Below, piece by piece: positions 2,879 to 23,154 of a stretch of 64,000 nucleotides of DNA. The notes under the pieces are model-generated. The model saw nothing but the letters and a program-made list of their open reading frames with translations, made no database searches and had not been told where the DNA came from. The stretch's first letter is position 1. Each line of letters starts with the position of its first letter. The stretch comes from Clostridia bacterium. GTDB taxonomy: Bacteria; Bacillota; Clostridia; Oscillospirales; CAG-272. The DNA is taken from the NCBI GenBank assembly GCA_017461055.1, contig JAFTZI010000056.1:19175-83174 (forward strand). Direction: 5' to 3'. The translations under genes were made by a program, and so were the position numbers.

Positions 2879-5800
2879 ATGGAAAGAACCAAGAGATTGT
2901 TGTCCTTGTTGCTTGCCCTTGTGTTTGTTTTTATCACAGTGGCAACTATGGTATCCTGCGGCGATGAAGAGAATCCTACACCAAACAGCTCTTCCACACC
3001 GCCTGTAACCTCATCAAGCAACGACAACGGTAACAATGACAACACGGATGATGAAAATAATAATCCGGGAGACAGTACAGAGGGAGAAAAGTCAAGCTAT
3101 ACTGTTAAAATTACTGACAAAAATACAGGCAAGCCTATTTCGGGAGTAAGCGTATTCCTGCAAGAAGAGGCAAGCATGACAGCTGTTATGTACGCAAGAG
3201 GAACAACTGACGAAAACGGTATAGTTGTTCTCAGCGCTGAGCCAAAGCACGCAAAGTACGTGTATGTTGAAGGCTTCCCAAAGGGCTATGTTTATGATGA
3301 TTTCTATGCACTCAACGCAACAGGTGTTGAAATTAAGGTAGGTACTCAAGTCATTGCAAATGACGGTAACTTCAACGGAAAGACCGTTGCTTTAGGCGAT
3401 GCTATGTATGACTTTACCTTGAATACCTTCTCATACGACAAGGAAACCGAATCCTTCGTATCAAAGGAAATTAAGCTTTCAGAGCTTTTTGCAAGCGGTA
3501 AAAAGGCTGTAATGCTTAACTTCTGGTACACAACCTGTACTTACTGTATTGAAGAATTCCCATACATCCAACAGGCTTATGAGCAATATGGCGAGGATTT
3601 GGAGATTATTGCCATTAATGCTTACGGCGATACAGAGGATGACTGTAAGAGCTTCTTGGAGTCCTTTGCACAGGGCGGCTATTATACAGAAGAGCCATGC
3701 CCACTCACCTTCTCATTTGCTCTCGACGCACTTGGTATTCAGGACGCATTCGGCTTTACAGTTAACCCATGCTCGGTTATTATTGACCGCTATGGAGTTG
3801 TGTCTATGATACAGGTCGGCGGTGTACTTGGTCCAAGATACTTTACAAATGCCTTTGACCATTATGTAGCAACCGACTATGAGCAAGGCTTGTACTCATC
3901 AATTTATGACTTAACTCCTGTACTTAAGCCTGACGTTGAAATGTCAGATGAAAGTGAAATTAAGGATGCTACCGTAGTAGGTGACATTACAATCTCCTTC
4001 AGACCCGAGGACGGTGAGGATGGAGAATACGCTTGGCCATTCGTTGTAAAGGGTGAGGGCGATGAAAAATATCTTGAAACGACAAACGTTGATATTGATA
4101 ACTCCTTTGCAATCCTTTACGCAGATGTTGAGTTGAAGGCAGGTCAAGCAATTATGTTTGATTATTTTGTATCATCGCAAAGACTTTACGATGTTCTTTA
4201 CGTTTTAGTTAACGGAAAGGACATTTACACAATTTCAGGAAGACCTCTTGAGGATGATGAAGGTAACTTCTTAGAGGATACATGGCAAAGCTGCTGTCCT
4301 TGGGTTGCAGAGGAAGACGGAATATATGAGGTTGCCTTCTGCTACGTTAAGGATGAAAGCGAAAAGGATGGCGACGACGTTGCCCGCCTTGATAACTTTA
4401 AAGTAGTTAACGAAAACGAAATCAATATCGAAACCTACATTCCAAGATATGCGGCACAGGGCCTTAGGGATGATAACACCTTCGAGCATTATGTTGATGT
4501 TGTATATAATGAAGAGGATGGCTACTATCACGTAGGTGAAAAGGGCGGCCCGCTTCTTTTGGCTGGACTTATTGGCGTTAATACACAGTTCTCCTTGAAA
4601 ATGGAAGAGGAGGACAGATACACAGTAGTAATCAAGCTGTCTCAGGATGGAAAGTTTGTCGTTAACGGTGAAGACAAATATACTCCTTTCATTATGTATT
4701 GTAACTATGCTTCCAATTCTCAGCTTTATGGCTACTGCCCTGTAACAGAGGAGCTAAAGGGCTACCTTGAGGAGTTTGTAAGACAAAACGACTTTATTAC
4801 AGACGAAAATTCTTGGCTTCAGCTCTGTGCATATTATGATTCTTACGGAACCGATAAAGAGCTTGAAGACCCGATAAAAGGACTTGCAACCTTCTCAGCT
4901 TTTGATGCTATTGAAACACAAGAGGGCGAAGAGGGCTTTAAGAATACAGTAACATATACACAAATTCTTATGCCAAGAGGTAAGCTTTACAAGTTCGTAC
5001 CTACAAAATCAGGTGTATATCGTATAACATCTAAGTCCTCACAGGAGGTTGACGGATGGATATTCGTAGGCGACCATAATCAATGGAATAATGAGAACAA
5101 TGGCGACAGAGTTCTTTTTGACGATTCTGTAATCGGCGAAAGATACTGTCCTGAGCTGCTTATCGACCCTGACGGAGACGGAAAGCTTGAAAGAGACTTA
5201 AAAAACTGCTCTATGATAGCATACTTTGAAGAGGGCGTAGAGTACTATATCGCTATCGGTTACTATGATGTATACGGCGCAGGCACATTTACCTTTGACC
5301 TTAAGTATGTAGGCGAGGAGTTTAATAAGTTTGAGGAAGCATCCATAGGCGCATTCACATATGATTTGGAAACTATGGATACAATAACAGGCGGTATTAA
5401 CGTTAAGCTTTGCGAGGACGAAAGCGACCCAAGATACGGTTACTATTGCCACTTGCTTCCAAACGGTGAGCTTGGCTCAATTTTGTATGCAGATTTCCAC
5501 TATACAACAAATATTTTCCCATCACAGTCAATAACTCAGCTTATTGAAAACAATGGCTTTAACTTTGGATGGACAGCAACCGACCACGAGGCTTATGTTT
5601 ACTATAAGAACTACTATGAAAAGGACGGTTACGAGGCACTTGAAAAGCTTTGGAAGAGCGACTTTGAAGCAAATTGGGAGCTTTACAAAATGGATGATAT
5701 AATCAATGGCATTTATCACGGCAAGGGTTCCGACCTTACTGACGAGGCAAGAAAATATCTTGACAAAATCGAGGACGGAACAGACGGTGTTAGCAATGAG

Positions 5801-6154
5801 ATGATTTATCCTGAGCGTCAGGGCTGTGTTCCTGTTGATGCAAAGCTTGCAGAATTACTCCAAGCTCTTATGGACAAATTCTCATTCTCAGGAATTGACC
5901 ATTCCTGGACAAAGCTCTGCTACTACTATAAGTCACTTGAAGCGCCTGCAAGCTCAGAGGAAAAGCTTGCACAGCTTGAAAGCATGATAGACAATGCTAC
6001 TATTTCAAGCTCTGACATTAAGGCGGAAATAGACGAAATTGTTGAGGAGCTTATGGCAGCATTGGAAAATTGGACTGTTGAAACAGTGAGAAGAAACCTT
6101 ATTGATGATGCTATGTCAGAAATCTATGAGCTAATCGAGGCTGACGCAGAATAA
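2879..6154 (+). CDS. Very large lipoprotein (1091 aa) with a carboxypeptidase-regulatory-like beta-sandwich, an embedded thioredoxin-fold (TlpA/redoxin-like, CxxC) domain and further beta-rich domains
   Basis: The track ORF starts at 2795. The internal ATG at 2879 has an AAGGAG RBS (2867-2872) and gives MERTKRLLSLLLALVFVFITVATMVSC/GDEENPTPNSSSTPP (lipobox). KAVMLNFWYTTCTYCIEEFPYIQQAYEQYGEDLEIIAINAY is a redoxin fold with CTYC at 3536-3547. YTVKITDKNTGKPISGVSVFLQ...TTDENGIVVL resembles a CarboxypepD_reg-like repeat. Confidence 0.8.
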   Translation: MERTKRLLSLLLALVFVFITVATMVSCGDEENPTPNSSSTPPVTSSSNDNGNNDNTDDENNNPGDSTEGEKSSYTVKITDKNTGKPISGVSVFLQEEASMTAVMYARGTTDENGIVVLSAEPKHAKYVYVEGFPKGYVYDDFYALNATGVEIKVGTQVIANDGNFNGKTVALGDAMYDFTLNTFSYDKETESFVSKEIKLSELFASGKKAVMLNFWYTTCTYCIEEFPYIQQAYEQYGEDLEIIAINAYGDTEDDCKSFLESFAQGGYYTEEPCPLTFSFALDALGIQDAFGFTVNPCSVIIDRYGVVSMIQVGGVLGPRYFTNAFDHYVATDYEQGLYSSIYDLTPVLKPDVEMSDESEIKDATVVGDITISFRPEDGEDGEYAWPFVVKGEGDEKYLETTNVDIDNSFAILYADVELKAGQAIMFDYFVSSQRLYDVLYVLVNGKDIYTISGRPLEDDEGNFLEDTWQSCCPWVAEEDGIYEVAFCYVKDESEKDGDDVARLDNFKVVNENEINIETYIPRYAAQGLRDDNTFEHYVDVVYNEEDGYYHVGEKGGPLLLAGLIGVNTQFSLKMEEEDRYTVVIKLSQDGKFVVNGEDKYTPFIMYCNYASNSQLYGYCPVTEELKGYLEEFVRQNDFITDENSWLQLCAYYDSYGTDKELEDPIKGLATFSAFDAIETQEGEEGFKNTVTYTQILMPRGKLYKFVPTKSGVYRITSKSSQEVDGWIFVGDHNQWNNENNGDRVLFDDSVIGERYCPELLIDPDGDGKLERDLKNCSMIAYFEEGVEYYIAIGYYDVYGAGTFTFDLKYVGEEFNKFEEASIGAFTYDLETMDTITGGINVKLCEDESDPRYGYYCHLLPNGELGSILYADFHYTTNIFPSQSITQLIENNGFNFGWTATDHEAYVYYKNYYEKDGYEALEKLWKSDFEANWELYKMDDIINGIYHGKGSDLTDEARKYLDKIEDGTDGVSNEMIYPERQGCVPVDAKLAELLQALMDKFSFSGIDHSWTKLCYYYKSLEAPASSEEKLAQLESMIDNATISSSDIKAEIDEIVEELMAALENWTVETVRRNLIDDAMSEIYELIEADAE

Positions 6155-11043: not shown

Positions 11044-12705
11044 GTGAACAGACAAGATGCCGAAAAAATCATAACTGAATATTTAAAACCCATGTTTGGC
11101 TTTGCACTGAAGCGGTGCAAAAACGCACACGACGCACAGGATCTATCTCAAGATATAGTATTGAAGGCGTTTCGCGCACTTTTGATCAAAGACGATATTG
11201 GAGATGTTAGCAAATTTATTTGGACGATTGCGCACAATGCACTCAGCAATTACTATCGAGATACTGCTAAAAGTATTATAGGCGTACCCATTGATGAGAT
11301 GGCTGAGATTATTGCGGATCCCGACTCGGCTTTTGATGATAATGACAATACTGATGCGGTTCGCAAATTACAGAGTGAAATCGCATATCTTTCAAAACTC
11401 CAACGTAAGATTGTAATTGCATACTATTTCGAAAACCGTAAGCAAGCCAATATTGCTGAAGATTTAGATATTCCTCTCGGCACGGTCAAGTGGCACTTGT
11501 TTGAAGCGAAAAAAGAATTGAAACGAGGTATGGATACTATGAGAAAAACAAGTGAACTAAAATTTAATCCAATCAAATTCACCGCAGTTGGCATTAACGG
11601 TGCTATCGGAACTAAATCTACTGATGAATTTTTCCGTTCCGCACTTTCGCAGAACATCTGTTATTGTGTACGTAATGAAGCAAAAACGGTCAATGAAATT
11701 GCAGATGCCATCGGTGTTTCGCCCGTGTATGTGGAAACTGAGGTCGATTTTTTGGAGAAATACGGCTTTTTGAAGCAAAGTCATGATAAATATATCGTCA
11801 ATTTTATCATAAGCGAGCCCACAGTAGAGCTTTTGACTATGCAAGATGAAATGTATAAAAAAGCGGCAGGATTGTTTGCAAATGAGCTATATGATGAGCT
11901 GATGAACAGTGGAATTTTGGACGATGAGAATATTTTCTGCAATCAAATGCTTTCCAATTCTACACGAGAAAAGCCGCTCAGAGATAAAAACTTTCTTCTG
12001 TGGTCGCTTATACCGTATATCGCAGCAATGTCGGGGGAAAAACTTATTGACAATACAATTACCTTTGAAGAGGTTGCTACCATTCGTCCTGACGGAGCAC
12101 ATAATATCGCTCATGCCACTGTTGTAGCGGATGAACTGAAATTGCCAAACGATTACGTTTATATGAGAGATTGGTGTGGACCGTGTTATAATGCGAACGT
12201 GGATCATATGCTTTGGAAGGTTGATACCGAGTGGTCGGGGCGACGCATCGAGGTTACTAGACATGAGCATGAAGTCGCAAAACGTGTCCTTTCGCTTTAT
12301 GAACACGAAGAAGAAAATCTCCTTTCAAAAGAAGATTATGCTTGGCTTTCTGAACGTGGATATATCAAAACTTGGGGAGATTATGATGGATACTTTAAAA
12401 CAGCGTGGCAGATCATCGTATTGAGAAACAAGGAGATTAAAGAAAAACTTCTCGCGATTGGTGAAAAGATAAAAGAAAAATACAAGGACGAATTTGATAT
12501 TATAAAAGAGCCTTATGTTAAGGCTACATTGAACTCGGTTCCTGCCCATTTGCGCAAAGTCAAGGCATATGAATTGCAGTTTGCGTTTCATGCTGACGGG
12601 TGGTTCTTACTGCACTGTATTGTTGCTCTCCTGAACAATGGCAAGTTAACGCTGCCCACCGAAGAACAGAAAAAAATACTTACAACGATTATTCTTCCGA
12701 ATTAA
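11044..12705 (+). CDS. Sigma-70 family (ECF-type, regions 2 and 4) RNA polymerase sigma factor with a roughly 390-aa C-terminal extension containing an extra winged-helix-like segment
   Basis: GTG start with GAGGT RBS 8 nt upstream. DAQDLSQDIVLKAF...FIWTIAHNALSNYYRD resembles region 2. LQRKIVIAYYFENRKQANIAEDLDIPLGTVKWHLFEAKKELKRG resembles the region 4 HTH. After about residue 165 the protein is soluble (no TM) and includes TVNEIADAIGVSPVYVETEVDFLEKYGFLK (wHTH-like). Confidence 0.8.
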   Translation: MNRQDAEKIITEYLKPMFGFALKRCKNAHDAQDLSQDIVLKAFRALLIKDDIGDVSKFIWTIAHNALSNYYRDTAKSIIGVPIDEMAEIIADPDSAFDDNDNTDAVRKLQSEIAYLSKLQRKIVIAYYFENRKQANIAEDLDIPLGTVKWHLFEAKKELKRGMDTMRKTSELKFNPIKFTAVGINGAIGTKSTDEFFRSALSQNICYCVRNEAKTVNEIADAIGVSPVYVETEVDFLEKYGFLKQSHDKYIVNFIISEPTVELLTMQDEMYKKAAGLFANELYDELMNSGILDDENIFCNQMLSNSTREKPLRDKNFLLWSLIPYIAAMSGEKLIDNTITFEEVATIRPDGAHNIAHATVVADELKLPNDYVYMRDWCGPCYNANVDHMLWKVDTEWSGRRIEVTRHEHEVAKRVLSLYEHEEENLLSKEDYAWLSERGYIKTWGDYDGYFKTAWQIIVLRNKEIKEKLLAIGEKIKEKYKDEFDIIKEPYVKATLNSVPAHLRKVKAYELQFAFHADGWFLLHCIVALLNNGKLTLPTEEQKKILTTIILPN

Positions 12706-12714
12706 TAAAACAAG

Positions 12715-12749
12715 CCGCCGAGAGTTACCATAATGGTAACTCTCGGCGG
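12715..12749. terminator. Bidirectional rho-independent terminator between convergent genes
   Basis: 15-bp perfect stem CCGCCGAGAGTTACC (12715-12729), ataat, GGTAACTCTCGGCGG (12735-12749). A-rich on the left flank and T-rich on the right. Confidence 0.8.
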
Positions 12750-12783
12750 TGCTTTGTTATTCATTTTTACTTACAGAAATTTT

Positions 12784-14397
12784 TTAATCGTTTTTTGCCA
12801 ATTCCGTATCAATTATTTCTTTTAGTGAATTGTAGTTCATTGAGGCTTTAATTGATGCAATAATCACACCGTCCTTATCAAGAATAATAGTGATAGGATA
12901 GGAATCTCCGCCGCCAAGCATCTTAAAGTAGGTTTCATCAGCGTACTCATCGCTTTCGTCTAAGGAAGTATCCTTAACGAAAATCATATCTGAGTCCTTA
13001 TAATGCGTATCTACATAATCCGCAGCAGTATTAAAATCTCTGTGTGTATGTACAGCAACAACTGTTACTGTGTCCTTATATTCTGTTGCAATTGTGTCAA
13101 AATAAGGCAGCTCCTCAATGCATCCGCCGCACCAAGTACCCCAGAAGTTTATAACTGTGATTTTACCATTGTTGCTTGCAGGATTAAAGCTTTCTCCATT
13201 TTTTCCGTTTTCGTCAAATACCTCCATATCGTAACCGTAGCAGGTATTGCCAACCTCGTTTCCAAGAGGTGGAGCATTATCTTCAACAGGAGGCTGATTA
13301 TTTGTTGGTGGAAGCTGTGGCTCCTTGATAACATCAATGAAATTGTAGTAAATTAGAGCAAATGCCAAAACGCCTGTCATTAAACAAGCAACAACGATTT
13401 TTAAAATCTTATTGCGCTTTTTGATTTTTTCATTGCGCGCCAAGAATTCCTCTCTTTGCTTGCTTGCAAGTAAAATTTCATCCTCGGAGCTGTTTTCGTT
13501 TATAGAAACAGGAGCATCAATTTCATTGGGCGGTAAAATAAGCTTTGAGCCCTTCCAAGAAATCGCTTGCGTCGGACAAACCTCAATACACTCACCGCAA
13601 TTTATACATTCGTGGTCATTAACGTGGCGAATATCTACCTTACATTTATTTACACAAAGTCCGCAATCGGTACACTTGCTTTTTTCAAGCTTTATTCCGA
13701 ATACGCTGAAACGGTTGAAAAGACCGTAAATAGCGCCAAGAGGACAAATGAAACGGCAGAACATTCTGAAAATAAATATAGAGCCTACAACAATGCTGAC
13801 AAGTAAAAGGAATTTCCAAGTAAACAAAGGACCAAGACGCGCAAGCTCGCTTTCGTTTACCTTGTTGGAAAGAAGTCCCATAGCGCCCTCAAGAGTGCCG
13901 GCAGGACATATGTATTTGCAAAAGGCAGGAATAGCTCTGTCCTTAAATGCGTAGAGAATAGGAACGACAACGACAAACAATACCAAAATAACGTATTTTA
14001 AATAAGACAAAATTTTGGTAATCTTGTTTTTCTTTAGCTTAGGGGTTTTAATCTTATATAAAAGCTCCTGAATAAGTCCGAACGGACAAAGAAATCCGCA
14101 AATAAAGCGACCGAAAAGCAAGCCGTAAAGCAAGAGAATACCGATAACATAAAATGGAACGGTTTTCTGACTTGCTCCGAGAGCATTTTGTAAAGCTCCC
14201 AAGGGACAAGCTCCGACAGCGCCCGGACAGGAATAGCAGTTAAGACCGGGGGCGCAGATGTTTTTTGAAGGACCCTTGTAAATCTTTCCGTTAAAGAAGC
14301 CCTTAATGTTTGCATTAAACAATAGAGCCGCATAAAGCTGAATCAGCTTTCTCTTTGATGGGAGAAGGCTTTTTATTTTACTGAACACTTTTTTCAT
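12784..14397 (-). CDS. NapH/MauN-like polytopic 4Fe-4S protein fused to a C-terminal TlpA/ResA-like thioredoxin domain
   Basis: Start chosen at MKKVFSK (14397), 2 nt after the upstream stop; the track ORF extends to 14427. CxxCP and CxxxCP motifs: NCYSCPGAVGACP, CGFLCP, CKYICP, CRFICP. Two ferredoxin motifs, CTDCGLCVNKC and CINCGECIEVCP (about 13566-13680). Then a TM helix ILKIVVACLMTGVLAFALIYYNF, a Pro-rich linker, and ITVINFWGTWCGGCIEELPYF with WCGGC at 13120-13134. Confidence 0.8.
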   Translation of the reverse strand: MKKVFSKIKSLLPSKRKLIQLYAALLFNANIKGFFNGKIYKGPSKNICAPGLNCYSCPGAVGACPLGALQNALGASQKTVPFYVIGILLLYGLLFGRFICGFLCPFGLIQELLYKIKTPKLKKNKITKILSYLKYVILVLFVVVVPILYAFKDRAIPAFCKYICPAGTLEGAMGLLSNKVNESELARLGPLFTWKFLLLVSIVVGSIFIFRMFCRFICPLGAIYGLFNRFSVFGIKLEKSKCTDCGLCVNKCKVDIRHVNDHECINCGECIEVCPTQAISWKGSKLILPPNEIDAPVSINENSSEDEILLASKQREEFLARNEKIKKRNKILKIVVACLMTGVLAFALIYYNFIDVIKEPQLPPTNNQPPVEDNAPPLGNEVGNTCYGYDMEVFDENGKNGESFNPASNNGKITVINFWGTWCGGCIEELPYFDTIATEYKDTVTVVAVHTHRDFNTAADYVDTHYKDSDMIFVKDTSLDESDEYADETYFKMLGGGDSYPITIILDKDGVIIASIKASMNYNSLKEIIDTELAKND

Positions 14398-14399
14398 AA

Positions 14400-15245
14400 T
14401 CAACCCATCCCTATACATTCTGTACAAATATTAATTGCCTTTGTAAGCACGTCAGCCATGCCTCCGTTTGTAACACCCAAGATTATAAAGGTAAGCGCAA
14501 GACAAGCTACAACACACTTCATTACAATTGATAAAATTCTGTGCCATTTTTTAGGTGCAGACGCATTTTTAAAGCTCTGTGTAAGTCCCTGTGAAAGCCT
14601 TGTAAATGTACCAAGCTCCGTGCCATTTTCTGACACTCCCTCGGCTGTTTTTGCGTTTTTAAGCTCATTTTTAACTATTTCAAGCTCTTTTCTTATGCTG
14701 AATTTGCAAACATAAGCAGTAACTACGAGATAAACCACAGGAACAGCAAAATATCTAAGGACAGAAAGACAAGCCTTAGTCATTTCTGCGTTAATGTCGG
14801 TTTTTGAAGCGTCAAAATTATTAAGCACGCTGACAAAGGAAATAACAGATGCAGCCACAATAAGCAGTACGCTGATTAGCACCATAACCAAGCGAAGAAT
14901 ACGTTGCTTTTCTATCATAGCACCGCCTTGGCCGCTTACCCTTTCAAGACGCAAGCTTAAATTGTGCAGTACTAATGAATCCTTTACCTTACCCTTTTCC
15001 TTTTTATGCTCCCTCGGTGTTATTATGCTGAGAACAACGCCAAAAGCCACAAGGCAAAGAAGCGCATAAACCAAAACCGCAATTTTTGAAAAATGCTCGC
15101 CAACGCTTTCTCTTGTAAAGGGAGAAGGGCCTGAGTTGTATATGTCAATGCACATAACAATGAACAAAACAGCCACAACGCATATAAGCAGGGTCGTTGC
15201 TATACCGTAAATCAAATTTATCTTTTTCAATGCTCTATTTGACAT
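14400..15245 (-). CDS. Polytopic membrane protein (281 aa, about 5 TM) ending in a C-terminal CxxC motif
   Basis: AAAGGAG RBS. Hydrophobic helices throughout. The last residues are ...GVTNGGMADVLTKAINICTECIGMG (CTEC at 14415-14426). From memory this tail resembles the small CD1871A-family CXXC proteins that sit beside 4Fe-4S-binding membrane proteins in Clostridia. Unverified. Confidence 0.65.
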   Translation of the reverse strand: MSNRALKKINLIYGIATTLLICVVAVLFIVMCIDIYNSGPSPFTRESVGEHFSKIAVLVYALLCLVAFGVVLSIITPREHKKEKGKVKDSLVLHNLSLRLERVSGQGGAMIEKQRILRLVMVLISVLLIVAASVISFVSVLNNFDASKTDINAEMTKACLSVLRYFAVPVVYLVVTAYVCKFSIRKELEIVKNELKNAKTAEGVSENGTELGTFTRLSQGLTQSFKNASAPKKWHRILSIVMKCVVACLALTFIILGVTNGGMADVLTKAINICTECIGMG

Positions 15246-15277
15246 AAGTAAGCTCCTTTCGAAAAATATTCCTACTT

Positions 15278-15306
15278 ATTTTAACATAAAAACAAGAAAA
15301 TGTCAA
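15278..15306 (-). promoter_or_regulatory. Putative sigma-A promoter of the CxxC-protein / NapH-TlpA operon
   Basis: Minus strand TTGACA (15306-15301), 17 nt, TAAAAT (15283-15278), 32 nt upstream of the ATG at 15245. Confidence 0.5.
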
Positions 15307-15735: not shown

Positions 15736-18700
15736 ATGAAAAGAAACCGAATCGTAAGATTAGCCGTTGCCACCGTATCGGTAATACTGCTAATCGCCAT
15801 GATGCTCTCAATTTGTACATCAGCACTTGGCGTGTCCACATCAGCGCCAACGTACATAAACGAGTATAATGGAAACCTTAAAACAAATATCGAGCAATTT
15901 TTTAACAACAGCGTGGTACAAAAGCTGCCAAGCACTGTTAAAAACACAGATACAATATCTGTAATTGTCGATCTTGACTTGCCTGCCATTATGGACGCAT
16001 ATGACTGGTCAGGCTCTGATTTGTCTATGGCTGAGTATGCTTCTACAAGTGAGGCTAAGGCGCTTATCAGCGAGGCTTTAAAGGAGAAGACAAGCATTCT
16101 TGAAAAGCTTGACGAAAAGGGAGTTAAATATACTCAAGGCGCTAATTACTCCACAATATTCAGCGGCTTTGAAATTTTAATTCAAGCCTGTGATTTTGAC
16201 ACTGCCTGCGACGCAATCGGCACAAAGGCAACTGTTATGGTTGGTGAGGTATATGCACCTGCTGAATCAAAGCTTGTAGAAAATGACGTTAACTTCTATG
16301 AGGATACGGGTATTTTCAACAGCTCCGATTTCAAGTATCAGGGTCAGGGTATGGTTATAGCTGTGCTTGACACAGGTCTTGACTATACACATACTGCATT
16401 CCTTGACAGTAACTTTACAGCAGACAGAGAAAAGCTTGGCTTAACAAAGCAAATGGTGGCTGACCTCTTGCTCGCTAAGGACACTCGCGCTGAATACTAT
16501 ATGCAGGGCGTTACTGCCGACGACCTTTATGTAAGCGACAAGGTTCCGTTTGCATTTGACTATGCTGACGGTGACGCTGACGTTTACTCACTGCATAACA
16601 ACCACGGAACTCACGTATCCGGTGTTATTGTAGGTAATGATGACGTAATTACAGGCGTTGCTCCGCAAGCACAGGTAGTTTCTATGAAAACCTTCTCCGA
16701 CGTTGAGGAGTCAGCTCGTACCTCTTGGATTCTTTCTGCTCTTGAGGACTGCGTGCTCTTAGGCGTTGACGTTATCAATATGTCACTTGGTACAGCTGCA
16801 GGCTTCAGCCGTGAAAGCGATAAGGAAGCGATAAACGGTAACGTATATCAGAAGATAAGAGATGCAGGCATTAGCTTGGTTGTTGCCGCATCAAACAGCT
16901 ACAACTCTGCATACGGCTCCGATAAAAACGGTAACTTGGGTCTTACATCTAACCCCGATACATCAACAGTCGGTTCACCTTCAACCTATGAGGGTGCTAT
17001 GTCTGTTGCATCTATCGACGGTAAAAAGACTCCTTACATCTTATACAACGGCTCAATAATCTACTTTATTGAGGCAACAAATGCTTCAAGCAAGGAAAAG
17101 GACTTCTTTGCTGAGGTCTTAAAGGACAGAATACCCGAGGACTCAAACGAAGCCATTGAGCTTGAATATGTTGTAGTTCCCGGTGCGGGCCGTCCTGCTG
17201 ACTATATGGGCTTAGACGTAACAGGAAAAATTGCCTTGGTTCGCCGTGGCTCAACAACCTTCGAGGAAAAGGCGCAGGCTGCTCAAAAGGCAGGCGCTTC
17301 TGCAATCATCATTTACAACAACGTATCCGGTGATATTAAAATGAACGCGGGTACAATTACAATTCCAATCTGTTCAATTTCACAGGACGACGGTGAATTG
17401 TTAGCCGCAAGCGAAACAGGAAAAATTAAAATCAGTCGCGCGCAAACATCGGGCCCATTCATTTCCGACTTCTCATCCTGGGGTCCTGCGCCTAACCTGA
17501 GCATTAAGCCTGAAATTACAGCTCACGGAGGTAACATCCTTTCTGCTGTAACAGGTGGCGACTATGACCGCTTGTCAGGTACATCAATGGCGTGTCCTAA
17601 TATGTCAGGTGTTATTGCGCTTTTGCGTCAATACGTGACAAACGAATACGATAGCATTAAAAATATGCCCGAGGGCGCTGAAAAGTCCAAGGCAACAAAC
17701 GCGCTTGTTAACTGCCTCTTAATGTCAACTGCCGATATTATGAGAAACAAGAGCGACTTACCGTACGCTGTAAGAAAGCAAGGCGCGGGTCTTGCCAATC
17801 TTGTAAAGGCATCAACAACAACAGCTTACATTCAAACCTACGACAGAGAAGATGGCTCTGTTATGGACAAGGCAAAAATTGAGCTTGGCGATGACAAGGA
17901 AAAAACAGGCGTATACACACTTAAATTCGCAATAAACAACTTCGGCTCAGCAGCACTTACATATGATTTAACGGCTCAGGTGTTGACAGAGGGCGTAAGT
18001 GACACAGAAACAGTTCGCGGTGAAACAACCGTAACCGAGGAGGGCTATCTCCTAAGCGGTGCCACATTTGAGGTAACAAAGGTAACAAACGGTACACAAA
18101 ACGGTAATAAGGTAAGCGTAAGCGGCGGCAACATAGCAGTTGTTGAGGCAAAGATAACTCTTTCCGATGCAGATAAGAAATATCTTGACGAGTCCTTTGA
18201 AAACGGTATGTACGTTGAAGGCTTTGTATGCTTAAAGGCTACCAGCGGAACAACCATTGACCTAAACGTTCCATTCCTTGCCTTCTACGGTGACTGGACA
18301 AAAGCACCTCTTTTCGATACAGATTACTATGAAACAAACCCCGATGAGATTGACGACGGTGTTTCACAGGACGATAAGGTAATGGCTGACGCTTATGCCA
18401 CACGTCCTATAGGCGGTCTTTACTCCGACTACGTAAGCTACTTGGGCGCATACTACTTCCAGCAGAATCCAAACGATAAGGTTATTGCCGCAAACAAAGA
18501 TTTTATCGCTCTTTCCTATGCTGACGAAACGGTTCACTCCTTCCGCTTCGTTTGGGCAGGCCTTTTAAGAAATGCCGCTAAGATGGTTATTACCATTACA
18601 AACGATGCAACGGGCGAGGTAATTTTTGAGACAGAAAAGCACGACATCCGTAAATCCTACGGTGACGGTGGCTCTATCTACCCCGCAAACATTGAGGTTG

Positions 18701-21700
18701 AGTTCGATACTCAGGATTATGACCTTCCGAACAATGCGCAGCTTTCAGTTAAAATCGAGGGCTACCTTGACTATGAGGACGGAGGCAGTGACACTAACTT
18801 AAAGAATACCTTTGAGTTCCCAATCGTAATTGACTATCAGGCTCCAAGCATTACAGATTGCGAGTTCTACACAGAATACGATAAGGACTTAAAGAAGAAC
18901 AGACTCTTTGCAAGAGTTGGCGTTTACGACAACCATCACGCAATGGCGCTTAACTTCGGTTATGTAAGAGAAGCAACAGATGAAGAGTACGCGCAGGACG
19001 GATACAAAAACCTTATGGAATCCTTCGAAAGCTACTTAACACCTGTATATTCAACCTTCAACAATACAACATATGTTGAGTATGAGCTTACAGATTACAT
19101 CTATGATATTAAGGAAAAATCAGCACATCCAAACTCCTTCGTTGTAACCTGCTATGACTACGCACTTAATACGACAACCTATGAAATAGGCTTGCCGGAT
19201 GAATATGTAGACTTCTACTTTGAGGAATCAAAGAACGAAACAAACTACTTAAGCGTAAATCAGGTATATCAGCTTAACCCAATCCTTTATCCAAATGAGG
19301 AAACAAATCCTGACGGAACTGACAACCCTTGGGGTGAGCTTGTTGAGTTCAACTCCACAAGACCGAGAGTTGCAAAGATAGTAAACGATAAGGTTGTTGC
19401 ATTGAGCCCGGGTGTTACTTGGATTCAGGCTAAGGATGCAAACGGTCACGTAGCACAGTTCCACGTAACGGTTCTCGGCAGCGAGGATGTAAAGAACAAT
19501 CCAAGCCTTGCCCAATATTACAAGGAATACGATAAGCCGGTAGCTGACGAATTTGACGTAATAGGCTACAAAACCTTAAAGGCATTCTACTACCTTAACA
19601 ATGATGAAAGAGATATAGGCTCAACAGGAGATCTTAAGCTGTTTGACGGTGGCTTTGACTTGAAGATGTTCCCATCCGAATCAGTTATGCTTAAGTCAAG
19701 GTTTACACCGTATCTCGATTCAGCAAAAATAGCATATCAATCCAATAATACAAATATTGTAGAAATTGATGAAAACGGCGTTGTAGTTGCCAAGGCAGAG
19801 GGATATGCCTCTGTAACAGTAAGAGTTCTTCTCGATGGAGAAAGAACCTACTTCTCGGAAACCGTTAACGTTGAGGTTAAAAATCCTTGGATAAGAACAG
19901 GCCCGTCACTTACTCACTACTTTGGTGCAGGCGGCACTGTAACAGTTCCGACCAACCTGAACCTTACAGAAATCGGTGCTTACGCATTTTCTAACTTTGA
20001 CTATGTAGAAAAGGATGAAAATGACGAAATCTCCGAGGAGGATCCAAACCTTACAAAGCAGGAATTCCTTGGTGAAAATACAGTAACAAAGGTAATTATT
20101 CCTATCGGTGTTGAAAAAATCGGCCCATATGCCTTTGCAGGACTTACAGCGCTTGAAGAGGTTGTAATTCCTTACACAGTAGAGGCAATTGAGTATGGCG
20201 CATTCTTCGGATGCACAAGCTTAAGAACCGTGTCCTATATGGATGAAAACGGACAGGTATTGCCGTCCGTTGGCTTAAAGAACGTTAAGCTTATCAATAT
20301 GGGCGCATTCCAAAACTGTAATTTAAGAGGAGAGCTTGTTCTTGACAATGCACGCGCAATCGGTGATTACGCATTTGCAGGTAACACAACTCTTTCCTCA
20401 GTAGTAATTCCACAAACACTTCAGTCCATTGGCGGATACGCATTCTATGGAAATAAGTCCCTTACAAGCGTAACAGTTCACGCTGAGCTTGTTAAGTACG
20501 GTCCGTACGTATTTGCAGGCTGCTCAAAGCTAAGCTCTATGACAACACTTAACAGTGATGACGAGTCAATAGGAACAATCAATGCAGCAGTTATCCCACA
20601 GGGCGCTTTCTATGGCTGTGAAAGGCTTACAAGCGTAACAATCGGTAAGGACGTAAATGTAATTGGCGAATACGCCTTTGCAAGAACAGGTGTTAAGAGA
20701 TTTATAGTAGCTGAGAATAATTCAGTATTCAAGCCACAAAATAACACATACATAGTATCCAAGGACGGACAAGAGCTTGTATTGGTAGCTCCTACCATAG
20801 AGGGTACATTTGAGCTTAAGGGCGTTACCTCAGTAGGTATCGGCGCATTTGCTGAAAACACAGGCATCGTTGAAATTAAGCTCCCCGACGTTACAAGTGT
20901 AGACAAATATGCCTTTGCTGAATGTCACAAGCTTCAAAGCATAACTCTCGGTAAGCTAACCGAGATTGGAGAATATTCATTCTTCGGCACAGCAATTACC
21001 GCTCATCCATCATTTGACAGTGTTAGCTACATAGCTCCGTACGCATTTTCAAATACAAAGCTTACAAGCGTTGTAATTCCAAATGGCGTAACTGTTGGAG
21101 AGGGCGCATTCTGCGAGTGCGACAAGCTTGAAAGCGTGGTTATCGGTAACGATGTCGTGCTTGAAATGGGCGCGTTTATGTACAACAACAGAATTAGCGG
21201 CAGATGGCAGCTATTGTACTACGTAAAGAACAATGTGCGCCATTACTATTACGATTACATTTCACCGCTTAAATCACTTACAATCGGCGACAATGCTGTA
21301 ATCGGTGAGTCTGCATTTATGGGCGCTGCCGATCTTGAAGCAGTAACACTTGGCGAAAATATTGTAATAGGCAATCAGGCATTCTACAATGCTTGCTCAT
21401 TAAAGACAATTCTTGATAAGAACGGTAATAACGTTGGATTTAAGAATGTAATTTCTATTGGCGAGCTTGCCTTTACAGGTGATGAGCAATTCGTATTTAC
21501 AAACTCATTTGATACTCCGGACTCCGCAAATATAATGATTTCGGGCGATTCTTATGTATATCACTACTACGGTGCTGCCTTTGAGGAAATCGACTTAACT
21601 AATGTCAAGGAAATAGGCAAGGGTGCTTTTGCATACTGTACACAGCTTGTAAGTGCAAATGTAGGCGAACGTAAGGACATACCCGAGCTTGCATTCTATG

Positions 21701-23154
21701 GCTGCGAAAAGCTTGAAAGCATTAATCTTGAGGGAGTAGAAACAATTGGTAATAACGCATTTGCAAATACTTCTTCATTAAAGAACGTTGATTTGTCCGC
21801 CGCTGTAAGCATTGGCGAATATGCCTTTACCTTAAGCGGACTTGAAAGCGTAACACTTAACGCAAACGGTACAGATATCGGCACAGGTGCATTTGCATAC
21901 TGCAAGTCATTAAATAATGCTGAAAATCTCGGTGCTTCACGCAATATTGCTTCATACGCATTTGCATATTCAGGACTTACAAGGGCTGATATAACAAGTG
22001 CAGAAACACTTGGAGATCACGTATTTATTAAGGAAGCCTTAACTCCGTTTGATTTGACCTATGGCAAGAGCCTTAAGTCAGTTGGCGATAACCCATTCGC
22101 TCTTTGTGCAATAGCTCCGTTTGTTGAAAAGACAAATTATGAGTTTAACGGTACAAGCTATGTGGTTGAAAATTACACCTTTAATATGACAGATACAGTA
22201 AAGGTTGTTAACGGCTCTCTCTACTGCAAGGTAGACTCAGGCTATGAGCTTATTACATATGCAGGCACTGAGGGTAAAAATGTTGTAGTCGTTGCCGAGG
22301 ACACAGTAAGAGTAAGCTCTTATGCCTTCGCAGGCTCCGATGTTGTGACAGTTCAGCTTCCACACTCATTAAATGCAATAGGACACAAGGCATTCTATGG
22401 CTGTGATAGCCTTGAAACAGTAATATTTAAGAGCTACGTAGCTCCTGTTCTTGAGGAACAGCTTGACGTAGCATACTACAACACATACAGTAACATTCCG
22501 GGTAACGGTACATATGAAATACCGCTCAACAACGGTGATGTTCTTGTTAAGGAAGGCTTAGGAATAGTAGACTTCTATATGTGGAATGTTCCTTCGGGAC
22601 TTTACTATGATGTATTCTTTGGCGCAAGCTTTATGAATAACATCGGACACATAGACAGACAGCTTGTTATGATAAGACCTTCAAACGGTCAATACTACGA
22701 AACCTTTATTTACGGTCAATACTTTGACAAGGTAATAGACGGCGCAATTTCCGCAACCGATGAAACCTTGGCAGCAATTGCCGCAATTGCTCAGCTTCCA
22801 AGAGTAATCAAGCTTACACACGAGCCGCTTGTTATAGCAGCACGTGAGGCATATAACAAGATAGCTACAAGAGACCAGCAGGCGCTTGTAACAGATTACG
22901 CTACCTTGGTATCGGCTGAAAACAAGATTCAACGTCTGAAGGACGAGGCTTCAGCCCCCGATATAACACCTCCGGACGACACCAATACACCAAATGACAA
23001 TCCGATTGATACAGTAGAACCGCAAAAAGACAGGTCAACAGTTGGCTATGTAATAGCAATTATTGTATTGTCAGTAATGCTTGTTGGCGGTGCGGTAGCT
23101 TCCGTATTGTTTATGGTAAAGATGAAAAAGCGCTACGATAGACCCCTTATGTGA
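15736..23154 (+). CDS. Giant (2472 aa) cell-envelope subtilisin-like serine protease (peptidase S8 with PA-domain insert) fused to Big_2-like domains, a very long BspA-type leucine-rich-repeat array and a C-terminal TM anchor
   Basis: N-terminal signal/anchor RLAVATVSVILLIAMMLSICTSALG. Catalytic motifs: VIAVLDTGLD (Asp codon 16369-16371), HNNHGTHVSG (His 16603-16605), LSGTSMACPNMSG (Ser 17584-17586). PA-like insert GKIALVRRGSTTFEEKAQAAQKAGASAIIIYNN. Big_2-like VALSPGVTWIQAKDANGHVAQFHVTV. LRR_5-type repeats (IGxYAFxxCxxLxSVxIPxxV) from about 19960 to 22440. Pro-rich stalk plus TM VGYVIAIIVLSVMLVGGAVASVLFMV, then KMKKRYDRP. Confidence 0.9.
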   Translation: MKRNRIVRLAVATVSVILLIAMMLSICTSALGVSTSAPTYINEYNGNLKTNIEQFFNNSVVQKLPSTVKNTDTISVIVDLDLPAIMDAYDWSGSDLSMAEYASTSEAKALISEALKEKTSILEKLDEKGVKYTQGANYSTIFSGFEILIQACDFDTACDAIGTKATVMVGEVYAPAESKLVENDVNFYEDTGIFNSSDFKYQGQGMVIAVLDTGLDYTHTAFLDSNFTADREKLGLTKQMVADLLLAKDTRAEYYMQGVTADDLYVSDKVPFAFDYADGDADVYSLHNNHGTHVSGVIVGNDDVITGVAPQAQVVSMKTFSDVEESARTSWILSALEDCVLLGVDVINMSLGTAAGFSRESDKEAINGNVYQKIRDAGISLVVAASNSYNSAYGSDKNGNLGLTSNPDTSTVGSPSTYEGAMSVASIDGKKTPYILYNGSIIYFIEATNASSKEKDFFAEVLKDRIPEDSNEAIELEYVVVPGAGRPADYMGLDVTGKIALVRRGSTTFEEKAQAAQKAGASAIIIYNNVSGDIKMNAGTITIPICSISQDDGELLAASETGKIKISRAQTSGPFISDFSSWGPAPNLSIKPEITAHGGNILSAVTGGDYDRLSGTSMACPNMSGVIALLRQYVTNEYDSIKNMPEGAEKSKATNALVNCLLMSTADIMRNKSDLPYAVRKQGAGLANLVKASTTTAYIQTYDREDGSVMDKAKIELGDDKEKTGVYTLKFAINNFGSAALTYDLTAQVLTEGVSDTETVRGETTVTEEGYLLSGATFEVTKVTNGTQNGNKVSVSGGNIAVVEAKITLSDADKKYLDESFENGMYVEGFVCLKATSGTTIDLNVPFLAFYGDWTKAPLFDTDYYETNPDEIDDGVSQDDKVMADAYATRPIGGLYSDYVSYLGAYYFQQNPNDKVIAANKDFIALSYADETVHSFRFVWAGLLRNAAKMVITITNDATGEVIFETEKHDIRKSYGDGGSIYPANIEVEFDTQDYDLPNNAQLSVKIEGYLDYEDGGSDTNLKNTFEFPIVIDYQAPSITDCEFYTEYDKDLKKNRLFARVGVYDNHHAMALNFGYVREATDEEYAQDGYKNLMESFESYLTPVYSTFNNTTYVEYELTDYIYDIKEKSAHPNSFVVTCYDYALNTTTYEIGLPDEYVDFYFEESKNETNYLSVNQVYQLNPILYPNEETNPDGTDNPWGELVEFNSTRPRVAKIVNDKVVALSPGVTWIQAKDANGHVAQFHVTVLGSEDVKNNPSLAQYYKEYDKPVADEFDVIGYKTLKAFYYLNNDERDIGSTGDLKLFDGGFDLKMFPSESVMLKSRFTPYLDSAKIAYQSNNTNIVEIDENGVVVAKAEGYASVTVRVLLDGERTYFSETVNVEVKNPWIRTGPSLTHYFGAGGTVTVPTNLNLTEIGAYAFSNFDYVEKDENDEISEEDPNLTKQEFLGENTVTKVIIPIGVEKIGPYAFAGLTALEEVVIPYTVEAIEYGAFFGCTSLRTVSYMDENGQVLPSVGLKNVKLINMGAFQNCNLRGELVLDNARAIGDYAFAGNTTLSSVVIPQTLQSIGGYAFYGNKSLTSVTVHAELVKYGPYVFAGCSKLSSMTTLNSDDESIGTINAAVIPQGAFYGCERLTSVTIGKDVNVIGEYAFARTGVKRFIVAENNSVFKPQNNTYIVSKDGQELVLVAPTIEGTFELKGVTSVGIGAFAENTGIVEIKLPDVTSVDKYAFAECHKLQSITLGKLTEIGEYSFFGTAITAHPSFDSVSYIAPYAFSNTKLTSVVIPNGVTVGEGAFCECDKLESVVIGNDVVLEMGAFMYNNRISGRWQLLYYVKNNVRHYYYDYISPLKSLTIGDNAVIGESAFMGAADLEAVTLGENIVIGNQAFYNACSLKTILDKNGNNVGFKNVISIGELAFTGDEQFVFTNSFDTPDSANIMISGDSYVYHYYGAAFEEIDLTNVKEIGKGAFAYCTQLVSANVGERKDIPELAFYGCEKLESINLEGVETIGNNAFANTSSLKNVDLSAAVSIGEYAFTLSGLESVTLNANGTDIGTGAFAYCKSLNNAENLGASRNIASYAFAYSGLTRADITSAETLGDHVFIKEALTPFDLTYGKSLKSVGDNPFALCAIAPFVEKTNYEFNGTSYVVENYTFNMTDTVKVVNGSLYCKVDSGYELITYAGTEGKNVVVVAEDTVRVSSYAFAGSDVVTVQLPHSLNAIGHKAFYGCDSLETVIFKSYVAPVLEEQLDVAYYNTYSNIPGNGTYEIPLNNGDVLVKEGLGIVDFYMWNVPSGLYYDVFFGASFMNNIGHIDRQLVMIRPSNGQYYETFIYGQYFDKVIDGAISATDETLAAIAAIAQLPRVIKLTHEPLVIAAREAYNKIATRDQQALVTDYATLVSAENKIQRLKDEASAPDITPPDDTNTPNDNPIDTVEPQKDRSTVGYVIAIIVLSVMLVGGAVASVLFMVKMKKRYDRPLM

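Follow-up and report, generated by a model that had tools for sequence, protein, structure and literature searches.

A NapH-like iron-sulfur protein fused to a TlpA-like thioredoxin: a possible transmembrane reductant-delivery operon in Clostridia

The window analysed here, a stretch of 64,000 nt from a Clostridia bacterium of the lineage Oscillospirales, CAG-272 (assembly GCA_017461055.1, contig JAFTZI010000056.1), carries on its minus strand an operon of two genes. Gene 1 encodes a polytopic membrane protein of 281 amino acids (aa) that ends in a CXXC motif, and gene 2 joins in one polypeptide of 537 aa a NapH-like membrane domain, two 4Fe-4S ferredoxin motifs, a further transmembrane (TM) helix, a Pro-rich linker and a thioredoxin of the TlpA/ResA type (Table 1). 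We consider it probable, at roughly 0.6, that this operon is a transmembrane reductant-delivery system built on a NapH-like iron-sulfur (Fe-S) protein and not on CcdA or DsbD. This reading starts from what is observed, namely the anatomy, conservation, predicted topology and gene linkage of the operon. A first-pass annotation of the same DNA had suggested that a single polypeptide might link a cytoplasmic Fe-S relay to a thioredoxin outside the cell; predicted topology and gene linkage support this suggestion, and the flow of electrons through the polypeptide is what we infer.

The fusion exemplifies a widespread, conserved module made of three parts: a CD1871A-type tail, a NapH-like protein and a thioredoxin of the TlpA/ResA fold, the last either fused or encoded separately. 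A scan of species-representative genomes returned at least 587 related loci, of which the 80 closest were analysed with hidden Markov models built from our own alignments; a second sample comprised 80 metagenome loci, mostly from the human gut, centred on an unfused relative, and the two samples together hold 157 related loci. The constant partner in this module is the CXXC tail. Its open reading frame (ORF) lies directly upstream and on the same strand in all 76 genome loci with a complete NapH-like ORF, and directly upstream in 69 of 70 metagenome loci, so that 145 of the 146 loci open to this test have it there. In 44 of the genome loci the thioredoxin is fused; elsewhere, as is often the case, it has a gene of its own that follows directly or lies a short way upstream. 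A thioredoxin, whether fused or encoded on the same strand no more than 2.5 kb away, was found in 50 of the 52 genome loci whose flanks both reach 2.5 kb or more and in 33 of 33 metagenome loci. Variation of the pair independently of any extracytoplasmic thiol substrate, which the first-pass annotation had named as a sign against its reading, is not what these loci show: a TlpA-like thioredoxin accompanies the module in 83 of 85 testable loci, and a secreted methionine sulfoxide reductase, MsrAB, or a thioredoxin-MsrA-MsrB fusion follows in some. Homologues of gene 2 number in the thousands; the best 120 all combine Fer4_5 and Redoxin domains within 500-800 aa, stem from metagenome-assembled genomes (MAGs) of Clostridia, and are annotated publicly no more precisely than as '4Fe-4S binding protein' or 'redoxin family protein'. 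The fusion noticed at first thus stands, being shared by hundreds of homologues alike; what had been missed is that it represents one of the forms of the module. The same trio is present in the complete genome of a cultured organism, Peptoclostridium acidaminophilum DSM 3953, where PGAP lists a 45-aa 'CD1871A family CXXC motif-containing protein' with a '4Fe-4S binding protein' next to it and a 'TlpA disulfide reductase family protein' close by. Some homologues of gene 2 (P0002, P0006, P0022 and P0027, 650-800 aa) possess two tandem thioredoxin domains, both with WCPGC in P0022 and P0027, the first without a CXXC (FWSFGNSNAH) in P0002 and P0006; a long acidic N-terminal extension is added in some of these variants.

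The three-module composition of gene 2 and all of its motif positions, WCGGC included, agree between the first-pass annotation, the sequence and Pfam. Fer4_5 matches in three stretches (74.7 bits, cutoff 22), in line with a weak mutual similarity of the three CX3CP units, and the dicluster families Fer4_7 and Fer4 match residues 236-285. The eight ferredoxin cysteines, C242 to C274, lie at 13674-13576, inside the interval 13566-13680 indicated before. A CcoG/FixG-type Fer4_18 match (34.6 bits, cutoff 27) is partial, covering profile positions 57-97 of 114, and the scan found no FixG_C domain in gene 2. Residues 394-521 match Redoxin PF08534 (49.4 bits, cutoff 26.6), AhpC-TSA PF00578 (36, cutoff 26) and Thioredoxin; the ResA, TlpA and StoA equivalogs are not reached (NF002854, 47.4 vs 170; NF047696, 44.5 vs 230; NF041202, 36 vs 210). 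Besides three CxxxCP motifs, the membrane part has one CxxCP, formed by C54-YS-C57-P. Neither gene product has a Pfam or NCBIfam match to DsbD/CcdA (PF02683/PF13386).

Might gene 2 be an ordinary quinol dehydrogenase of the NapH/NosR type in an anaerobic respiratory chain, with thioredoxin and CXXC peptide serving only the assembly or protection of an extracytoplasmic reductase? Its best NCBIfam match is indeed napH_ TIGR02163, and many respiratory reductases have a NapH-like module as partner (PMC8238504). However, this match reaches 83.8 bits, far under the cutoff of 213.05 (NF007013, 62.9 vs 234), and neither the window genes flanking the operon nor the loci sampled were found to include a gene for NapA/G, NosZ, Rdh, an FMN-binding protein or ApbE; the two proteins themselves are likewise free of FMN-binding and ApbE domains. 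NapG/NapAB or MauM/methylamine dehydrogenase partners are missing around the operon in the window and from the genes that recur beside the module in the loci sampled. Menaquinol (~-74 mV), furthermore, is unable to reduce a thioredoxin-type disulfide without energy input. We therefore hold a quinol dehydrogenase to be very improbable.

Conservation was read from alignments of 77 fused gene 2 homologues, 32 unfused orthologues of the NapH-like part and 117 gene 1 sequences. Invariant in the fused homologues are ten membrane-flanking cysteines, the eight cysteines of the ferredoxin motifs, C423 and C426 of the thioredoxin active site, and P501, which on inspection we read as the cis-Pro of the thioredoxin fold; the same 18 cysteines of the NapH-like part are invariant in the unfused orthologues. 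The gene 1 tail keeps K269, A270, I273, C274, E276, C277 and G279 in all 117 sequences, bringing the invariant redox cysteines of the two proteins to 22. The CxxC residues, whose conservation the first-pass annotation had left to be checked, are together with the CX3CP cysteines all invariant in orthologues. Around its two cysteines the thioredoxin active site varies, being mostly CxPC (CGPC, CTPC, CNPC, CSPC). Two further cysteines stand outside the motifs: C32 of gene 1 (about 15150-15152), in the first TM helix near its outer end, is invariant in the 117 sequences, and C386 of gene 2 (about 13240-13242), immediately ahead of the thioredoxin domain, is kept by at least 90% of the 77.

Where do these cysteines reside with respect to the membrane? 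Topology was predicted from hydropathy and the positive-inside rule, for the window proteins and, in the case of gene 2, for averages over 77 and 33 homologues. On the inside are predicted to lie the N-terminus of gene 2 (6.8 Lys plus Arg in 19 aa), loop 2 (6.8 in 30 aa) and the ferredoxin domain with its linker (17.0 in 110 aa); on the outside, loop 1 with the CX5CX2CX6C cluster (3.8 in 46 aa), loop 3 with the second CX3CP (4.0 in 44 aa) and the linker plus thioredoxin (184 aa, 11.6 Lys plus Arg vs 32.1 Asp plus Glu). Per residue, loops 1 and 3 carry 0.08-0.09 basic residues, vs 0.23-0.36 in the N-terminus and loop 2. The loops of gene 1 hold on average 3.3, 2.5, 11.6, 1.2, 9.2 and 1.5 Lys plus Arg among 117 homologues; since loops 2 and 4 are the basic ones (11.6 and 9.2), its N-terminus should be inside and its CXXC tail outside, in agreement with minimal tail peptides, in which a basic N-terminus is followed by one helix. 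Two CX3CP motifs are accordingly predicted inside, and one CX3CP plus the four-cysteine cluster outside, beside the exported tail CXXC and the thioredoxin CXXC. By these outward motifs, the loop 1 cluster and the second CX3CP, gene 2 would differ from NapH. Five unfused thioredoxin partners read in orthologous loci have a signal peptide and a lipobox cysteine, and as lipoproteins they imply that the thioredoxin acts outside the cell irrespective of any helix prediction. A topology lacking the first helix, TM0 (residues 19-37), was rejected; it would place the ferredoxin domain and the Lys-rich loop 2 outside, which these lipoprotein partners contradict. Charge bias and lipoprotein partners thus bear out the placement that had been proposed from the outset, with the ferredoxin domain inside and the thioredoxin outside.

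How might such an operon deliver reductant? We infer which way electrons flow, what donates them, which cofactors the CX3CP motifs hold and which client is served, and envision the following scenario. The two cytoplasmic 4Fe-4S clusters of gene 2 would receive electrons from a cytoplasmic carrier of low potential, probably ferredoxin or flavodoxin in reduced form, and may pass them to the CX3CP pairs at the inner face, C100/C104 and C214/C218. The electrons would then cross the four-helix core to the outer cysteine motifs of loop 1 (C48/C54/C57/C64) and loop 3 (C160/C164), which might act jointly with the CXXC of the exported gene 1 tail (C274/C277). At the outer face, one-electron carriers would have to be converted to a dithiol, as in ferredoxin:thioredoxin reductase (FTR), and the cysteines there may bind a further cluster or form a disulfide relay. 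Whether the CX3CP motifs are disulfides or clusters, either fits a relay from inner motifs to outer motifs, tail and thioredoxin. The tethered TlpA-like thioredoxin (C423/C426), once reduced, would reduce extracytoplasmic clients, in relatives the secreted MsrAB.

The best pointer to function comes from gene order in relatives. In a Solobacterium MAG (locus L061) the succession is tail, NapH-like protein, thioredoxin and an MsrAB with a lipoprotein signal, and L082 has a 675-aa fusion of Redoxin, PMSR and SelR domains (thioredoxin-MsrA-MsrB) after the NapH-like gene. Of 33 metagenome loci, 7 have MsrA/B no more than 2.5 kb away and 31 have a divergent histidine kinase/response regulator pair. 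Possible low-potential cytoplasmic donors are also encoded beside relatives, namely a flavodoxin (L057), a TrxB-like flavoprotein (L081) and a DUF362 plus Fer4 protein (L083). The Msr-containing gene order together with these low-potential neighbours leads us to read the module as a supplier of reductant to a thioredoxin outside. An OmpR-type regulator and a HisKA kinase, encoded divergently, adjoin the operon in the unfused clade (L061, L066, L068, L072, L074, L075, L081 and L082); the fused clade of the window is without this two-component pair.

Alternatively, the same hardware could act on a small extracellular substrate, such as a metal ion, peroxide, cystine or other low-molecular-weight disulfides, instead of protein disulfides or MsrAB. 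Thioredoxin proteins associated with the membrane take part in metal uptake elsewhere, and FetE is among the fold matches of gene 2; no metal-transport genes, however, recur near the module in the sampled loci. The NapH-related CcoG reduces Cu2+, and the Fer4_18 and AhpC-TSA matches would suit such a role, but the active site is a thioredoxin-type WCxxC combined with the invariant P501, read as cis-Pro, and no peroxiredoxin-specific NCBIfam model scored over its cutoff, the peroxiredoxin active-site signature itself not having been searched for. Finally, although no MsrAB lies near the window operon, the client is MsrAB wherever an operon encodes one. Taken together, we regard a small substrate as unlikely.

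Structure prediction with AlphaFold2 (AF2) from the 77-sequence alignment yielded a confident thioredoxin domain, and in a fold search with the gene 2 model this domain alone was reported. Its matches are ResA, Etrx1, StoA, CcmG and TlpA, with TM-scores relative to the target of 0.58-0.86, of 0.7-0.86 for most, and of ~0.8 for ResA, Etrx1 and StoA; as modelled, the fold is that of extracytoplasmic thiol-disulfide oxidoreductases, which in this set are mostly reductases. The NapH-like and ferredoxin parts have a predicted local distance difference test score (pLDDT) of 30-55, so the model lends no support to the mechanism. Searches of the PDB by sequence and profile found no solved homologue of the membrane part; matches are confined to the ferredoxin and thioredoxin stretches, and polyferredoxins match solely in the former.

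Because the TlpA-fold matches also include the oxidases SdbA and DsbF, a reverse flow is conceivable, in which the thioredoxin oxidises exported proteins like DsbA or MdbA and passes electrons by way of the Cys motifs and Fe-S clusters to a cytoplasmic acceptor, an anaerobe's substitute for DsbB or VKOR. The hardware has no built-in direction, and many large cysteine-containing surface proteins are encoded around the operon. Against this stand the linkage to MsrAB, which is a consumer of reducing equivalents, the prevalence of CxPC/CGPC-type active sites typical of reductants, and the strictly anaerobic gut habit of the hosts. Low-potential ferredoxin-type clusters are, moreover, poor acceptors of thiol electrons. 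We give the reverse direction little credence, less than a small substrate.

MsrAB linkage, CxPC sites, a NapH score under cutoff and the lack of a respiratory partner weigh against the rival explanations. Reductant delivery by the operon faces difficulties of its own. The linkage to MsrAB comes from loci of the unfused clade; in the clade to which the window belongs, the operon is on its own. TM0 is weakly hydrophobic, and the outside location of loop 1 rests on charge bias and the consistency of the topology; over most cysteine motifs of the membrane and ferredoxin part, the pLDDT is below 50. An Fe-S cluster facing outward would be oxygen-labile. A search with a ccdA/dsbD signature motif found neither gene in the window or in 165 loci, which is weak evidence for a replacement.

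Table 1. Features of the operon, in positions of the window, listed in the direction of transcription.
Feature	Position	Strand	Basis or remark
Sigma-70-type promoter, TTGACA-17 nt-TAAAAT with TG extension, for both genes	15278..15306	-	11/12 matches; best of the region's 10 promoter-like sites
Ribosome-binding site AGGAG, 7 nt 5' of the gene 1 ATG	15253..15257	-	sequence read
Gene 1: 281-aa polytopic membrane protein, 5 TM, predicted N-in/C-out; long CD1871A-type CXXC-tail partner	14400..15245	-
Last TM helix and predicted extracytoplasmic tail ...NGGMADVLTKAINICTECIGMG, residues 236-281, CD1871A-family unit	14403..14540	-	NF040920 match, conservation
CTEC, invariant tail CXXC (C274, C277)	14415..14426	-
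Gene 2: NapH-like membrane Fe-S protein, extra TM helix, Pro-rich linker and TlpA-like thioredoxin, 537 aa	12784..14397	-
Loop 1 Cys cluster C48-x5-C54-x2-C57-P-x5-C64-P (CAPGLNCYSCPGAVGACP), predicted extracytoplasmic	14203..14256	-	invariant in 77 fused and 32 unfused homologues; charge topology
CX3CP number 1, C100-GFL-C104-P, predicted cytoplasmic end of TM1	14083..14100	-	sequence, conservation, topology
CX3CP number 2, C160-KYI-C164-P, after TM2, predicted extracytoplasmic	13903..13920	-	sequence, conservation, topology
CX3CP number 3, C214-RFI-C218-P, predicted cytoplasmic end of TM3	13741..13758	-	sequence, conservation, topology
Two 4Fe-4S ferredoxin motifs, CxxCxxCxxxC and CxxCxxCxxxCP (C242-P275), predicted cytoplasmic	13573..13674	-	Fer4_7, Fer4, Fer4_18; eight Cys invariant
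Extra TM helix, residues 331-349, predicted to return the chain to the outside	13351..13407	-	hydropathy 2.57; AF2 long helix 305-354
Pro-rich linker EPQLPPTNNQPPVEDNAPPLG after the last helix, predicted extracytoplasmic	13258..13332	-	sequence read
TlpA/ResA-fold thioredoxin domain, residues 387-537, acidic, predicted outside	12787..13239	-	Redoxin 49.4 bits; pLDDT mostly 82-97; fold matches
WCGGC active site (C423, C426)	13120..13134	-	sequence read, conservation
Intrinsic terminator hairpin, 16-17 bp, bidirectional, directly 3' of gene 2	12715..12749	-	also serves the convergent sigma-like gene

The operon is placed between one divergent and one convergent gene, and with a promoter before gene 1 and a terminator after gene 2 the pair forms a self-contained bicistronic unit. 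The common consensus promoter and the 2-nt spacing of the genes were recognised correctly in the first-pass annotation: the TGA of gene 1 (14402-14400) is followed by a TT spacer (14399-14398) and the gene 2 ATG (14397-14395). No clear Shine-Dalgarno sequence was seen before this ATG, which suggests that translation of gene 2 is coupled to that of gene 1. An in-frame TTG at 14427, ten codons upstream (547 aa in the ORF list), would overlap gene 1 and was rejected as the start; independent gene calls on two near-identical public scaffolds, which give the same 281-aa and 537-aa products, and the N-termini of homologues (MKK) favour the ATG.

Gene 1 likewise conforms to its initial description as a 281-aa protein with about five TM helices whose last eight residues, CTECIGMG, contain the CTEC. 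Its C-terminal 37 residues, 245-281, match the NCBIfam family NF040920 (CD1871A_fam) with 39.5 bits over a cutoff of 32, and outside the CD1871A unit no Pfam family was found. As judged from sequence, gene 1 represents a long form, with the CD1871A unit placed at the end of a putative four-helix extension of 235 aa without known fold. The AF2 model (pLDDT 78) has long helices across the five hydrophobic segments and a tail helix, and a fold search of the PDB gave no meaningful match to the five-helix body (best E-value 0.6). This long form comprises 762 clusters (50% identity) at E<=1e-30, all alike in length. More generally the tail consensus, ...KAxxICxECxGxG, is carried either by long ORFs of 250-300 aa or by minimal peptides of 40-60 aa in which a single TM helix joins a basic N-terminus to the tail. 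Choosing the longest ORF also produced a 'tail' of 502 aa in L077 and comparable long forms in loci of high GC content, which were dismissed as artefacts.

The CD1871A family is so far a name only, and we found no paper on it. Its name-giving gene is numbered beside CD1871 of C. difficile 630, which the literature mentions without functional data: one paper labels CD18710 'Conjugative transposon' in a table, another describes CD1871 as an ABC transporter permease, and a third assigns CD1863-CD1870 to the conjugation module of CTn5 (PMC12772354, PMC11326576, PMC3158075). Given this conjugative-transposon region, the minimal module may travel on mobile elements. In P. acidaminophilum the module resides on an 809-kb plasmid, beside an IS256 transposase.

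Which proteins surround the operon in the window? Near it there is no MsrAB, and two neighbours recur in its clade, a divergent protease with S8, PA and leucine-rich repeat (LRR) domains and a TlpA-like lipoprotein. The protease (15736-23154, plus strand) is a secreted subtilase of 2472 aa with Peptidase_S8, PA, eight BspA-type LRR_5 stretches and a C-terminal TM anchor; it recurs in at least 9 of the 80 genome loci and in L166 and L167, whose gene 2 products are just 58-60% identical, so the arrangement is conserved beyond close relatives. The lipoprotein (2879-6154, plus strand; ORF listed from 2795) has 1091 aa, the signal MERTKRLLSLLLALVFVFITVATMVSC, and a TlpA/AhpC-TSA-like domain with CTYC at about residues 200-340 of the 1119-aa ORF, followed by about 750 aa without a Pfam family. 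In 17 of the 80 genome loci and in L167, a homologue of 900-1170 aa with a TlpA-like CxxC domain is encoded no more than 10 kb from the module. This lipoprotein, or other surface proteins, is a candidate client or partner in the present genome. Converging on gene 2, with which it has the bidirectional terminator (12714-12750) in common, is a gene (11044-12705, plus strand) for a 553-aa protein whose first 160 residues contain sigma-70 regions 2 and 4 and whose C-terminal extension of about 390 aa belongs to no family. It ends a plus-strand run of surface-protein genes, which includes a GT2, the thioredoxin-lipoprotein, a 557-aa protein and a 917-aa protein of the SpaA/prealbumin fold.

There is a substantial chance that the module constitutes a distinct class of transmembrane thiol reductase. 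The fuller proposal, that this class is common in gut Clostridia, takes in single ferredoxin electrons and yields a dithiol outside, amounting to an FTR that spans the membrane, and stands in for CcdA/DsbD in organisms with a ferredoxin-based central metabolism, with the CX3CP motifs of the NapH/NosR/RdhC superfamily as sites of conversion or relay, we hold more tentatively, at slightly less than even odds. The module is frequent in human-gut assemblies, and its cultured hosts include P. acidaminophilum DSM 3953, Flavonifractor porci and Lachnoclostridium sp. An181. To our knowledge, the characterised routes that bring reducing power to outer thiol chemistry all belong to the CcdA/DsbD/ScsB family and are fed by cytoplasmic thioredoxin. 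If our reading is true, a ferredoxin-fed Fe-S route would be a second, mechanistically different solution and would explain how anaerobes with a ferredoxin-centred metabolism keep surface thioredoxins and Msr active under oxygen or peroxide in the gut. It would also give a first concrete function to many genes named '4Fe-4S binding protein', 'hypothetical protein' or 'CD1871A family', and offer a handle on the CX3CP motifs of NapH, NosR and RdhC. These motifs have no assigned role, redox-active disulfides being favoured over clusters (PMC5928378).

How does the module compare with known systems? NapH-like modular conduits and CcdA-thioredoxin-Msr pathways are known already; what seems new is the coupling of a NapH-like protein to a thioredoxin. 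We found no paper on such a coupling, on this module or on a similar route independent of DsbD/CcdA, in accord with the initial impression that the fusion is not a characterised system. In output, the module resembles the CcdA/DsbD pathways, Neisseria DsbD-PilB among them, with a TlpA-fold thioredoxin outside that is membrane-anchored or a lipoprotein. Extracytoplasmic pathways of this kind are CcdA-Etrx1/2-MsrAB2 of S. pneumoniae (PMC3914529) and CcdA-SdbB/Sgo_1177-MsrAB of S. gordonii (PMC7034828), and F. nucleatum has the loci msrAB2-ccdA-eTrx-modRS and msrAB1-ccdA (PMC12288474). The layout in relatives of the window operon matches such loci (thioredoxin, MsrAB, two-component system), with the CXXC peptide and the NapH-like protein in the slot of CcdA, and the two-component pair of the unfused clade resembles ModRS beside msrAB2. 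The membrane component, in contrast, is not homologous to CcdA/DsbD; it has two 4Fe-4S sites and ten further invariant cysteines and would need a separate CXXC-tail peptide. With 4Fe-4S sites and extra cysteines in place of the CcdA fold, the donor is probably ferredoxin-like and not cytoplasmic thioredoxin.

With NapH, NosR, RdhC (PceC) and CcoG (PF12801), gene 2 has in common the four-helix core, CX3CP motifs after helices and a C-terminal cytoplasmic double 4Fe-4S domain. NapH-like proteins are regarded as modular conduits that carry electrons across the membrane to acceptors outside the cytosol, in most cases flavinylated domains, and gene 2 belongs to the Fer4_5 'NapH-like' superfamily in this sense (PMC8238504). 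It has the predicted architecture of NapH, with four TM helices, two cytoplasmic CX3CP motifs and a cytoplasmic 4Fe-4S pair, to which outward motifs and a fifth helix are added. Unlike the known families, it contains the extra CX5CX2CX6C and a third CX3CP and scores far under the NapH cutoff; its outside partner is a thioredoxin instead of NapG or an FMN-binding or Ig-like domain, and the module comes with an obligate partner of the CD1871A type, its locus contains no respiratory reductase, and a quinone probably takes no part. The gene 1 tail provides the CD1871A-type partner, gene 1 being a long form of NF040920. We take CcoG to have an extra helix that places its C-terminal domain outside, like gene 2; nonetheless, gene 2 falls outside the CcoG/FixG family, as the Fer4_18 match is partial, FixG_C is absent and the outside domain is a thioredoxin. 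In FTR and HdrB, ferredoxin-type electrons reduce a disulfide, and a Cys-rich site couples one- and two-electron steps. The chemistry proposed for the module would be the same by analogy, with no sequence relationship. FTR and Hdr, however, are soluble enzymes of the cytoplasm or stroma, whereas the module would perform this conversion across or outside the membrane.

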